Origin: Escherichia phage REP2
Direction: 5' to 3' (one strand)
Length of the DNA stretch: 64,000 nt
Sequence record: OQ174501.1
Below, piece by piece: positions 45,062 to 50,506 of this stretch. The notes under the pieces were generated by a model. The model saw nothing but the letters and a program-made list of their open reading frames with translations, had not been told where the DNA came from and did not search any database. How positions within the stretch are numbered: the stretch's first letter is position 1; every line of letters starts with the position of its first letter. A program made the translations under genes and the position numbers.

Positions 45062-45334
45062 ATGAATAAAAACATTGATACAGTTCGTGAAATTATTACT
45101 GTTGCGTCTATTTTGATTAAATTTTCCAGAGAAGATATTGTTGAAAATCGTGCTAATTTTATTGCATTTCTGAATGAGATTGGAGTAACGCATGAAGGTA
45201 GAAAGTTAAATCAGAATTCATTCCGTAAAATTGTTTCTGAATTAACCCAAGAAGATAAGAAAACCCTCATCGACGAATTCAACGAGGGTTTTGAGGGTGT
45301 ATATCGATATCTAGAGATGTATACAAACAAATAA
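45062..45334 (+). CDS. asiA: anti-sigma70 factor AsiA
   Basis: 90 aa; size and position match T4 asiA. Confidence 0.8.
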   Translation: MNKNIDTVREIITVASILIKFSREDIVENRANFIAFLNEIGVTHEGRKLNQNSFRKIVSELTQEDKKTLIDEFNEGFEGVYRYLEMYTNK

Positions 45335-45991
45335 TTATTTAGCCCTTCCTAATATTCTGGCCGCCTGAGAACATATTGATTCAAGGCGGTCATTACTTAT
45401 ATGATCATTTCTATACCAGTACATGGTTATTGTTCCAGCATAGATATTATCCAAATTGAAATATGGACAACTGTACATGTAATTTATTTCGGGAGTAGGC
45501 TTTTTAGTTGGTAAAAAAGCAAATTTTGAGTCGGAATAATAATGACGTCCATTTAAATGAACTGCATATTCATCCATAGTTTTATCAACAGGATATCCTC
45601 CAAGTGATTTTTCGCTTATTGTTGAAGGTAATTTTCCTTCGTATGCTATAATATCAACAAAATAGTTTAAGTTTTTAGGGCGGAAAGAATATACCGCACT
45701 AAAGTCTGCCTCAGATGATATATGAACTATCTGGAGTTGTTCCAGGGCGACAGATTCAAAGCGTGCATTTCTTTCCTTTTCAATAATTTCGCTGTATGTT
45801 TCATACTTTGATTGCTTATAGTACTCAAAGAAACTATCTCCCCTATACCAAACAATCGCCATTATAAACAAAAGAATTACGACAGCTACCCGGGAAGCAA
45901 GAACTTTCCCGGTAGCATTATCTTTGAACAAGCGATCTAGAACACCAAATAGAATATCAGAGGGCGAAAATGATATTCTAGGTGCTGCCAT
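45335..45991 (-). CDS. t: holin T
   Basis: 218 aa; single N-terminal TM segment and large periplasmic domain; adjacent to gene 38. Confidence 0.85.
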   Translation of the reverse strand: MAAPRISFSPSDILFGVLDRLFKDNATGKVLASRVAVVILLFIMAIVWYRGDSFFEYYKQSKYETYSEIIEKERNARFESVALEQLQIVHISSEADFSAVYSFRPKNLNYFVDIIAYEGKLPSTISEKSLGGYPVDKTMDEYAVHLNGRHYYSDSKFAFLPTKKPTPEINYMYSCPYFNLDNIYAGTITMYWYRNDHISNDRLESICSQAARILGRAK

Positions 45992-46021
45992 AGACCCTCC
46001 TTTTAAGGGTATTTATTCACA

Positions 46022-46804
46022 TTATACTCTTGGACCATATATTGCTCCAACATTTTGCCATGTTGGAGCGGACCCTATGACAGCATAACCAGCAGCACCG
46101 CCATCATATTCAGATCCTTGACCGCGAATATTGCATCTACCTCCCGCGGAACCTACTTCACCACCGTTTCCGCCATTATAGATACCATTCACGGATCCTG
46201 AGCCAGGTGCAGAAATAGTACCACCAGTCGCGCCTGATTGCATATCAATAGATCCGCCTGGCGCACCAAAAGGACGACCGCCACCGCCGCCAAAGGTCAA
46301 TCTCATTTGTGAAAAAGGAGAATAATATCCGCCGCCACCGCCACCGCCGCCGCCTGCAATAGCTCCGCCATTATTAATTCTTAGTCTCCCACCAATATCG
46401 TTTTGAATACAATGACCCCCAGCTGAGCCAGGACTATTGCTACCACCATTACCTCCACGACCATACATCGTTACGCCATGTATATTTAACTGAACATATT
46501 CATTTGGTGTATCTCCGTACATGAAGAATAAAGGAACATCTTTAGAATATGATACTAAATCACCTGTAATATTAAACACTATAGGTGCACTACCGGCCTC
46601 AAAACATCTATCTCGGAACCATTGACCATTGAAGTTATGGTCTGCTCCAAGTGTATGAATAATTTCTCGTGAGCGACCTGCAAATTGACTCATCCAGCAA
46701 GGAACACCCAATCTTAATTGACCAGCCGCTTGACTCATCCATCGTTGCCCTGTTTCATTTGCGGCTGAACTTCCAATCCAACCAGGAACACCAACTACTG
46801 CCAT
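46022..46804 (-). CDS. 38: gp38 long-tail-fibre tip adhesin, T2/T6 type with glycine-rich motifs
   Basis: 260 aa; poly-Gly runs (GGGGGGGGG, GGGGG) separating variable segments; downstream of gene 37. Confidence 0.8.
46085..46459 (-). repeat. glycine-rich motif region of gp38 (GGN-type low-complexity coding repeats)
   Basis: runs such as ccgccaccgccaccgccgccgcc on the plus strand encode poly-Gly. Confidence 0.6.
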
Positions 46805-46839
46805 AATTTATCTCCAAAGGGGGCGTTGCCCCCTTGTTG

Positions 46840-49785
46840 TTAGAATTTAAAATATTTACTAATTTTGCGAGCAATTTTAGTAAAGAAAGGAGTTTTCAAT
46901 TCTTTAATTTCTTCACTCATTTCCTGAATAGCCTTAATTAAAAGAGCATTCACAGCAGAGTTAGAAATTGTCAGAACATCAGATCCATCAACTTCAACTT
47001 TAGATACAGCTTCCGGTAATTCCTTTTCAAGGTCCTGAGCAATAATACCAACTTCACGTTTAATAACGCTACGGTCTTTAATAGACTTAACTTTATCGTA
47101 AATATAAACTTTCAGTCGGCATACTTTTTCGACTGCTCCATATTCTAATTCTTCTTTATTAATCTTGAGACGGGAGTCAGAACGAATATACACATCGCTA
47201 AAGCTACCATTTCCTGGTGTATAAAAGAATCCATCATGATGGAATTCAAACACAGCTTGTGGGTGTCCAGCATCAGGAGAAGCCTCCGTGGATCCGACAC
47301 GAATGATTGCTTGCCCCCACTGTGATGGAATACGACGCATACCAAAGTCAACAGCGGTGCTATATCCTTGATTGGTTATAACGCTTCTTGCTTTAAGAAT
47401 AGGATAATAACAATCCTGTGAAACATAACCATGATCAACGAATAATGGAGCTTCTACTCGCCATTGGTTGCCCCAATCACCCGGTTGTCTAGCAATCCAT
47501 CCAGAACCGTTAATGTGTACACGGTCGCGGTTAACGTTAACCATTGCGGTATTTTGCGGGTTTAACGCAATCTCACCATTGTTTGTGATATGTACTGCCG
47601 CCTGAGAAGCATAGCTATAAAATGCTAGCGAATTATCAGCACCACCCTTGCCAATATACCAGTTACCAGTCCCGTCTATGTCACCGCGAATATGCAAAGA
47701 ATTACTAGCAGTTGTTGATAATACAATAGAATCATTAGGTGCATTGATTGTTAACCGACCTGTCATCGTATCACCGCCTTTACCTACGCGAGTATTCAAG
47801 GCAGCATCTAAATTTGTCGCATTGTTATATTTCTTCCAGATTGAACCGGCAATATTACCATCTGTATTAAGGAACGCATCACCGACATATACACGTCCTG
47901 GAGATTTAAAATAACCTGACGGCATGAAAGTCCATTGTTTTAACCCATCTGCTGTTCCATTAGCGGATAAATCACCCTGAGCAATGATCTTATATTCGGA
48001 TGTACCTATAGCCATACCAGTGGCAAAGGTGATATTACTTACAGTATTTTTCTGTTTAACAATTGGCGCAAACTGGTTTTTATTTGAATCGTCAATAGCC
48101 TGATATAATGGCGCAATGGTAGTATTCTGATTTGCGTAAGTATTAGAACCAGAACCGCTAGCAGGGGCTTGAATATATGCTCCTGGAGCAAGTGAAATTT
48201 TCTGATTAGCACCAAGATTAACAGCAGCAGTGATATTCAGCAATCCCCTAAAGTTTTGTTGAGCAGTCCAAGTATGTGATCCGTCTTCAAGAACAACACG
48301 GCGACAAGTATTAGTCCTACTTCCTGGATTACCAGCGATACGAACAACGAAATAACGGTAGTTTGTCTGGGATACAGTACCGCGCCAAACCTGAACAGTA
48401 CGCCCTGTGCCAGTGTGTTCGCTAGGACCAACGGAAAACATAACCAAGTTTCCGTCAATCGTCCCCCAATCCATATTTGCTGGCATGTTCTTTATTTTGT
48501 TCAAAGGAACGCTAAACATACTACCAGGAACAAAATCAAAGGTTTGCCAATCTAACTCCGCTAATTGAGCTTTAATACCACCCATACCCAAAGTAATTGG
48601 CAGAGAGTAAGATGTATATACTTCGTTCCATGCACCCCACGCACCACCAGTATATGCACGCTCAAAAATACGTCCGCGAGTAGTTGCGCCTGTTCCGGCA
48701 GTAGTAAATTTTTGGAAAATAGCACCACCAGAAGCACGCTGTTTAACTTCCAGCAAACCAACAATAACAGGCGGCAAACCTTCACCTGTAGGGCAGTTAA
48801 TAACGGCATCGGTGCCTAAAATATTATATAACCCAGGAGTTTTAAAATCATTAAGGTCACCATCATAGAAAGTCGCTGGTGTGCCATGACCAACCTGCTT
48901 CCATTCCTCCCACTTAGGTGCACTAGCATCCCATGCAGCAGCGAGACAACGAGTATAAACCATACCCATGCGGGTAGTATAACGCTGAGTTCTCGTGTAT
49001 AAACCACCTTCAAATATTTCTAAAAATCCTTGTGCGGCTGATCCTTCTTCTGGATAATGGCGATCAAATGATGCGATTGCGCTTGAACTGTTTCGCCATA
49101 AGCCACAATGTTCTAATTCTCCCAAGCTATCAAGGTCAATCGTTTGTGAAAGTGGACGAGTTGACGCTTGAACATTACGCCACACACCCCATGGACCATC
49201 GACGCCATTCCATTTAGCAGATAAGGAACGAATATAGACGTTACCAGATCTTACAGTATAACGCTGAGTGCCAGCAAATTGGCCGGCCACAAACACTTCT
49301 AGTACACCTACGGCATTTTCTTCTGGGAATTTATTTGCTGGTTGCGCATTTGTTGAAGTAGATTTCGACCAAACACCAAGATATTCTTCAATGGGCCCAT
49401 ACGTATCTAAATTAGCATCAGTAGGTAATTCGCCATTATTTTTTATAAATGTTGTGCTATTGACATTTATGTCAGATGGAGTTAAGGTAATGTCTTTTGA
49501 CCCATCAAAAGATATACCATTAATTTTCCTAGGTGTTTGCAATTTAGTAGCTGTGCTAGAATTTCCAATTAAAGTTCCAGTTATATTTTCTGTAACCTCT
49601 AAAGACCCATTTATAGTTCCTCCATATTTTAAACCTAATTCTATAACACTACCTGAGTCATCTTTTGTGAAAATTGTTTTATCTTTTAAGTTTATAGCCA
49701 ATTCACCTTCGGCTAATACTGAAGCAGCAGGACGTTGACCTGCAGTTTTGCTTCTTTTAAATTGTATTTGTTTTAAAGTAGCCAT
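46840..49785 (-). CDS. 37: long tail fibre distal subunit gp37
   Basis: 981 aa fibrous protein between genes 36 and 38. Confidence 0.85.
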
Positions 49786-49793
49786 AAGTCCTC

Positions 49794-50444
49794 TTAATAA
49801 TAGCCGAAATCTTGAACAGAATCCTTAATTACGATTTGGTCAAATCGTGGAACGTGTGAAGGTTGAGATGCAGGATTCTGTGAAAAAAGGTTTGGCGCAG
49901 TTAAATTTCCTGTCATAGTGTCTCCAGAGCGTAATACCCTAGAGTTTGCATTTGTTGTAACAGTATTTATTGCTCCATCAACATAATCTTTACGAGTAAC
50001 ATCAGATGCTGCGGAAGGAGTAGATGTAACAGTTACAGATGGAGCCGTTACAGCCCTGGTAAATGTTGTCAAACCTTCTGGTGTAATAGTAATTTGTCCA
50101 GTAGTGATTTCACTACCTGCAGGTCTAAAACTAATACCGCCGGAAGAGCCACCAACTACAAGAGTATTACCGGTACCGCCACCAGAACGAATTCGAATGG
50201 GGGTTTCATTATTACTTAATTGAAGATAACTATTTACCCCGTAATTAATAGTAATTGGACCGGTGTAAGTACCACCATTAGCTTTAGAAACGAAATCGTT
50301 ATCAGCTGCCTGCGGTTTATTATATTCTGAATATATTTTAAATGATTTGTAGAGTACATCGTCACCGGCTGAATTCAATGGAAAATTTCCTTGATGCCAA
50401 ATGACAGATCCACCTACAGTTGAACCTACTTTTAAATCAGCCAT
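49794..50444 (-). CDS. 36: long tail fibre subunit gp36
   Basis: 216 aa; position between genes 35 and 37. Confidence 0.8.
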
Positions 50445-50467
50445 TATATGCCCCTTTATTTTAATAT

Positions 50468-50475
50468 TATTTATA
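50468..50475 (-). promoter_or_regulatory. late promoter (TATAAATA on minus strand) for genes 36-37-38
   Basis: plus-strand tatttata; 23 nt upstream of the gene 36 ATG. Confidence 0.55.
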
Positions 50476-50482
50476 AAGAAAA

Positions 50483-50501
50483 AGGGAACCCGAAGGCTCC
50501 C
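50483..50501 (-). terminator. rho-independent terminator after gene 35 (minus strand GGGAGCC-UUCG-GGUUCCC plus U-run)
   Basis: plus-strand gggaacccgaaggctccc preceded by aaaaag. Confidence 0.55.
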
Positions 50502-50506
50502 TCAGT

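Follow-up and report, generated by a model that had tools for sequence, protein, structure and literature searches.

The window analysed here is a stretch of 64,000 nucleotides from Escherichia phage REP2 (OQ174501.1), which contains the genes 36, 37, 38 and t in this order on one strand. Gene 38 occupies positions 46022..46804 of the minus strand, including the stop codon, and codes for a protein of 260 amino acids, which is assigned as the receptor-recognising adhesin gp38 based on the open reading frame, its Pfam matches and its identity to deposited gp38 sequences. The initial annotation had put a gp38 of 260 aa at this place without naming the strand. Coordinates and length are borne out by the reading frame, which starts with ATG and spans the interval exactly from start to stop codon, and the strand is the minus strand. 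A Shine-Dalgarno sequence, GGAG, can be read at 46812..46815 (minus strand), 7 nt upstream of the ATG, and the record of phage U115 annotates a ribosome-binding site at the matching place.

With 63 glycines (24.2%), gp38 is by far the most glycine-rich product among the 47 open reading frames of at least 150 aa in the window; its glycine fraction of 0.242 is followed by 0.111 for the next protein, and the median is 0.057. [quoted passage not shown] The longest run comprises nine residues (aa 151-159), which agrees with the maximum reported in the initial annotation, and is accompanied by a run of five (aa 172-176) and eleven GG pairs. Runs of at least nine glycines arose in 77 of 200,000 shuffles when the composition of the whole protein was used, and in 646 of 200,000 when the glycine-rich C-terminal domain alone was shuffled. 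The runs are encoded by a mixture of GGC, GGT and GGA codons and are therefore no simple DNA repeat; across a family alignment of 57 sequences, residues G152-G156 and G173-G176 do not vary. The GC content of gene 38 is 46%, that of its C-terminal half 50%, and that of the window 35%. This increase is due to the GGN glycine codons, and a foreign origin of gene 38 need not follow from it.

Neighbouring genes and transcription signals

Gene 38 is preceded by gene 36 (49794..50444, minus strand) and gene 37 (46840..49785, minus strand) and followed by the holin gene t (45335..45991, minus strand). Gene 37 encodes a protein of 981 aa with a match to the Pfam family gp37_trimer. Its residues 1-868 (47182..49785, minus strand) would correspond to the mature part, the distal half-fibre trimer that carries gp38 at its tip and ends with DVYIR (aa 864-868). 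The remaining residues 869-981 (46840..47181, minus strand) constitute a C-terminal intramolecular chaperone, which is predicted to be cut off and which matches Peptidase_S74 over aa 869-927 (E=6.2e-10). Both parts meet within the motif DVYIR/SDSRLKI at aa 864-875. For the closely related fPS phages, this motif was predicted to be a self-cleavage site by alignment with the S16 structure, and the DVYIR tip of the trimer, once exposed, would take up tryptophan residues of the gp38 N-terminal domain (PMC7917993). Mature gp37 of the window is likewise predicted to end at R868, which would leave the docking site for gp38 exposed.

A GC-rich intergenic stem-loop, GGGGGCAACGCCCCC, which is followed by UUU, is predicted at 46819..46833 (minus strand) between the stop codon of gene 37 (46840-46842) and the Shine-Dalgarno sequence of gene 38. 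Stem-loops formed by different sequences are also present at the 37/38 junction of T6, T2, T4 and PST, with a UUCG tetraloop in T2 and T4; the element is therefore kept regardless of whether gp38 is an adhesin or the T4 chaperone. The hairpin of the window folds only modestly better than shuffled sequences (z=-1.9), and its conservation across the T-even phages is the better evidence. In the record of phage fPS-65, a 'terminator' is annotated at the same place. The stem-loop may set the ratio at which gp37 and gp38 are expressed, or it may stabilise the mRNA.

The T4 late-promoter motif TATAAATA is located at 50468-50475 (minus strand), 23 nt upstream of the start codon of gene 36, and is preceded by a terminator-like hairpin with a UUCG loop at 50482-50503 (minus strand). 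The placement of both elements suggests a late transcription unit comprising 36-37-38(-t). Across the window, TATAAATA is not enriched (5 found vs 10 expected), and the one suggestive feature is its location upstream of gene 36; sigma-70-like sites between 45200 and 50600 are fewer than in shuffled sequences (8 vs 15.5) and thus uninformative. Terminator-like hairpins are somewhat enriched in the latter interval (10 vs 4.0 in shuffles), and two that fall within the glycine-codon stretches of gene 38 are probably artefacts of composition. A terminator-like hairpin of 14 bp with a T-rich tail is found at 45260-45292 (minus strand), a short distance downstream of the stop codon of the holin gene t. 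It lies inside the anti-sigma factor gene asiA (45062..45334, plus strand), in opposite orientation, and may terminate the late transcript of the tail-fibre and holin genes.

Family, fold and domains of gp38

Two Pfam families are recognised in gp38. GP38 (PF05268) is matched over its entire length (profile positions 1-218 of 218; E=1.4e-71; 241.3 bits at a cut-off of 25), and Gp38_N (PF21721) covers aa 1-42 (E=6.2e-20; 71.4 bits at a cut-off of 25). The sequence also matches the two gp38 adhesins with solved structures, the receptor-binding domain from phage PP01 (9V85, E=7.8e-79) and the gp38 of the tip complex from phage S16 (6F45, E=1.2e-49). An AlphaFold2 model, which was built on 57 homologues, reached a mean pLDDT of 91.5 and a pTM of 0.82. 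When the PDB was searched with this model using Foldseek, the same two entries were retrieved with a probability of 1.00, namely 9V85 (E=1.4e-26, 66% identity, rmsd 2.4 A, TM 0.86 on the target) and 6F45 (E=1.9e-22); no further PDB entry matched in this search, the next one having an E value of 2.5. The predicted fold of gp38 is that of a beta-helix combined with a polyglycine-II sandwich. Within the specificity domain, the model is least confident for aa 161-170 and 221-230, which lie within two hypervariable loops. The adhesin-type architecture proposed in the initial annotation is thus supported by the two Pfam families and by the matches to 9V85 and 6F45, both at the level of the sequence and of the predicted fold.

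The protein can be divided into three domains. The N-terminal attachment domain (aa 1-46; 46667..46804, minus strand) contains the Gp38_N match and, by homology, would dock on the tip of the gp37 trimer. The gp38 of the window has the tryptophans W9, W22 and W37, of which the first two do not vary among the 57 homologues; in S16 and the fPS phages, conserved tryptophans have been described to dock onto the gp37 tip (PMC7917993). It is followed by a conserved domain (aa 47-114; 46463..46666, minus strand) with low column entropy, for which beta strands are predicted with pLDDT values of 92-96 and which is called the beta-helix domain after PMC12892980. The specificity domain, a putative polyglycine-II sandwich, comprises aa 115-260 (46025..46462, minus strand) and is supported by entropy, predicted fold and identity to Tsx-dependent adhesins.

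Trojet et al. described a design of five glycine-rich motifs (GRMs) and four hypervariable segments (HVSs) for gp38 (PMC3157838). An entropy profile of 110 near-full-length gp38 homologues, which were obtained by a protein search, places GRM1 at aa 115-121, HVS1 at aa 122-129, GRM2 with the G9 run at aa 130-158, HVS2 at aa 159-171, GRM3 with the G5 run at aa 172-180, HVS3 at aa 181-210, GRM4 at aa 211-222, HVS4 at aa 223-234, and GRM5 together with the C-terminus at aa 235-260, of which aa 235-244 form a conserved block. In this alignment, the mean column entropy between aa 116 and 260 is 0.48 bits for glycine positions and 1.47 bits for all others, and the conserved glycine-rich motifs, for example GRM2, are not pure glycine runs. 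The short variable segments that had been postulated between the glycine runs are readily found as variable blocks at about aa 122-129, 159-171, 181-210 and 223-234. That receptor specificity resides in them, as the initial annotation further assumed, fits their variability in the alignment and was assigned by published genetics and structures (PMC3157838, PMC12892980). In the crystal structure of PP01 gp38, a lattice of polyglycine-II helices is built by the GRMs, and the five distal loops, A-E, are made up of the HVSs (PMC12892980). When transferred by alignment, these loops map approximately to aa 121-127, 160-171, 184-190, 204-209 and 225-233 of gp38.

In phage T4, the product of gene 38 is a tail-fibre assembly chaperone, which remains outside the virion, while the receptor is bound by the tip of gp37. 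The gene name and the slot between gene 37 and t are common to T4 and the window, and would be expected if gp38 were a chaperone of this type; however, the likeness does not extend beyond name and genomic position. The initial annotation had raised an alignment to the T4 chaperone as the outcome that would speak against an adhesin, but a BLASTP comparison with T4 gp38 yielded a match of 12 residues (E=1.7), and thus no detectable sequence similarity. T4 gp38 is indeed shorter, as had been stated, with 183 aa compared to 260 aa, and has no Pfam match, whereas GP38 and Gp38_N are both found in the window's gp38 and in T6 gp38. Furthermore, gp37 of the window has its own Peptidase_S74 chaperone domain, and a note in the T4 record itself says that T4 gp38 is not the adhesin. 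The chaperone identity was ruled out by BLASTP and Pfam, and there is very little chance that it applies. The odd composition of the gene, with 24% glycine and a GC content well above that of the window, could also be produced by a chance or low-complexity frame that is no real gene. Against this stand the conservation of the frame, and its annotation as a gene, across hundreds of phage genomes (837 matching records, of which 266 span 80% or more of the query), its Shine-Dalgarno sequence and ATG start codon, two crystal structures of homologues and a fold prediction of high confidence; this explanation is refuted by these findings, and its probability is practically negligible.

Receptor class

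An alignment with gp38 proteins of other phages, which had been proposed as the way to infer the receptor class, points to the T6 class, whose receptor is Tsx. In the specificity domain (aa 116-260), gp38 is 97.9% identical to that of T6 (S165P, D187N, A199S), 99.3% to that of RB14 (A199S), 99.3% to that of WilhelmHis (D234N), 98.6% to those of KarlGJung and U115 (G194A, D234N) and 96.6% to that of RB5 (five substitutions). Wherever gp38 differs from one of these Tsx-dependent adhesins, its residue occurs in another one. The comparators for other receptor classes included M1, FL08, FL18 and AV119 for the OmpA type, T2 for FadL and, in addition, wV7 and KIT03; K3 and Ox2 were left out. The identity to labelled adhesins of non-Tsx type (T2, M1, Ac3, FL18, FL08, AV119, wV7, KIT03, Bp7, MX01 and BF15) ranges from 38 to 78% over aa 116-260 and amounts to 48% for T2, 73% for FL18, 54% for FL08 and AV119, and 54% for wV7 and KIT03. 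It is 70% for M1, the receptor class of which we take to be OmpA.

Several of the near-identical adhesins belong to phages whose receptor has been studied by genetic means. The T6-like RB phages, including RB14, depend on Tsx (PMC3157838), and a tsx mutant was complemented in the case of WilhelmHis (PMC8594841). When tsx is deleted from the host, phage U115 can neither plate nor adsorb, and complementation brings both back (PMC7414163). Tsx was also reported as the receptor of KarlGJung and Paracelsus (PMC13353012). Furthermore, Lutz et al. reported that the receptor can be predicted from a gp38 phylogeny if the N-terminus is omitted, and that Tsx represents the largest class (PMC12032242). 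Because of the near-identity to adhesins of phages with tested Tsx dependence, the nucleoside channel Tsx is most likely the primary E. coli receptor of gp38, as judged from the sequence. A literature search for phages with 100% identical gp38 (KEP10, G4498, HEMP5, REP3 and Ptacy1496) found no receptor data. The near-identity is strong evidence and yet falls short of proof, since the specificity can be broadened by as few as two or three substitutions in HVS2 and HVS3, as Trojet et al. described for PST (PMC3157838). The substitutions that distinguish PST, a phage that uses OmpA as well and plates on Yersinia, have been linked to the recognition of OmpA and of Yersinia (PMC3157838) and are Q166R, M167I and G207I in the numbering of the window; they are absent from gp38, which keeps Q166, M167 and G207.

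The protein might also be a tip adhesin whose effective receptor is not Tsx, or not Tsx alone. S165, D187 and A199, at which it departs from T6, could permit the recognition of OmpA, of an LPS core or of some structure on the Yersinia surface, similar to PST and the relatives that infect Yersinia. After REP3, the nearest relatives of the gene 36-t DNA are the Yersinia phages PYps47T and PYps32T (about 99%), and the gp38 of fPS-65, which infects Yersinia pseudotuberculosis, is two residues away. Phage fPS-65 was isolated on this species, of which only the LPS inner-core mutants hldE and hldD are resistant, and its receptor there is heat-stable (PMC7917993). However, gp38 lacks all three PST substitutions, each residue that distinguishes it from one Tsx-dependent adhesin is common to another, and U115 and KarlGJung, which have the gp38 sequence of fPS-65, strictly require Tsx on E. 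coli K-12 (PMC7414163, PMC13353012). The dependence on the LPS core in Yersinia may also reflect the short tail fibres instead of gp38. A receptor other than Tsx, or one in addition to it, is thus quite improbable for gp38 of the window.

The gp38 of fPS-65 is identical to that of U115 (positions 101-883 in the fPS-65 record and 101-883 in the U115 record), and according to Trojet et al., Y. pseudotuberculosis does not possess a Tsx homologue (PMC3157838). One and the same adhesin thus serves U115 on E. coli and fPS-65 on a species reported to have no Tsx, and hosts of phages with this type of adhesin need not carry Tsx. It could be speculated that the combination of S165, D187, G194, A199 and D234 in the HVSs adds a second specificity for an LPS-core or non-Tsx outer-membrane target and allows crossing into Yersinia, as fPS-65 and the PYps phages do; this is unlikely, and if true, adhesins of the T6 type would be polyvalent by nature and not limited to Tsx. 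The product of gene 38 is best read as a T2/T6-type gp38 tail-fibre tip adhesin of a T6-like Tequatrovirus, whose primary receptor in E. coli is most likely Tsx, and a probability of about 90% is given to this reading.

Proposed mechanism and comparison with known gp38 systems

The following mechanism can be proposed for the adhesin. The gp37 protein would trimerise with the aid of its own C-terminal Peptidase_S74 chaperone domain, which, by homology to S16 and the fPS phages, would then be cut off after DVYIR868 and thereby expose the flat tip of the gp37 trimer. As in S16, gp38 would dock on this tip with aa 1-46 via the conserved tryptophans, and a monomer of gp38 would cap the long tail fibre. 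In the specificity domain, the glycine-rich motifs would form polyglycine-II helices that are packed into a rigid sandwich, as supported by the match of the predicted fold to 9V85 and 6F45. This sandwich would present the hypervariable segments as five distal loops, which would bind to the extracellular loops of an outer-membrane beta-barrel. As the loop set is that of T6, this receptor would most likely be Tsx. The reversible binding of gp38 would then let the baseplate trigger, and changes in the loops would be expected to shift the host range.

In most T-even-like phages, gp38 is the protein that chiefly determines the host range, and it is a preferred target when therapeutic phages are engineered. 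Knowledge of the receptor class predicts the likeliest route to resistance, the loss of tsx, which also confers resistance to albicidin (PMC8245764), and it shows which phages would make useful partners in a cocktail. The gp38 of the window is itself already known: its sequence is identical to deposited ones, and the family, fold, mechanism and probable receptor are established. It therefore adds no new biology.

The gp38 proteins of REP3, KEP10, vB_EcoM_G4498, HEMP5 and Ptacy1496 are 100% identical to that of the window over all 260 residues and show no difference at all. In reverse-complement orientation, the window corresponds to Escherichia phage REP3 (OQ174502.1), with 100% identity over the stretches compared, 45300-50500 and 1-25000; gene 38 is annotated in REP3 as 'tail fiber protein; host specificity'. 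Among the matches listed, 60 phage records each contain a copy that is at least 97% identical. The gp38 proteins of RB14, WilhelmHis (Bas35), KarlGJung (Bas37) and U115 have the same length, architecture and gene 37-38-t context as the one described here, and WilhelmHis gp38 carries five further changes in its N-terminal half.

The classical Tsx adhesin, gp38 of T6, on which Trojet et al. carried out genetic work in 2011, is 95% identical overall and has the same five GRMs, four HVSs and Pfam domains. It differs in its length of 261 aa, which results from an extra glycine after position 109, in 11 substitutions within aa 1-115 and in three within the HVSs. The two parts of the protein have different closest counterparts: aa 1-115 are 100% identical to M1 gp38 and 89.7% to T6 gp38, whereas aa 116-260 are 70% identical to M1 and 97.9% to T6. 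This mosaic of an M1-like part (46463-46804) and a T6-like part (46025-46462) points to recombination near GRM1, which would shuffle specificity domains between backbones. An exchange of specificity domains by recombination has been described (PMC3157838) and is consistent with this pattern.

PP01 gp38 (9V85) has the same fold of beta-helix and polyglycine-II sandwich, shares 66% identity over 220 aligned positions and hardly differs between aa 43 and about aa 158; however, its loops A-E are unrelated in sequence, and its receptor is OmpC of E. coli O157 (PMC12892980). The gp37-gp38 complex of Salmonella phage S16 (6F45) agrees in domain order and fold at 43% identity, and its gp37 likewise contains a cleavable chaperone domain. 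S16 nevertheless belongs to another genus, has other loops and uses OmpC as its receptor, and its gp37 shaft is unrelated to that of the window up to the last five tip residues (PMC7917993).
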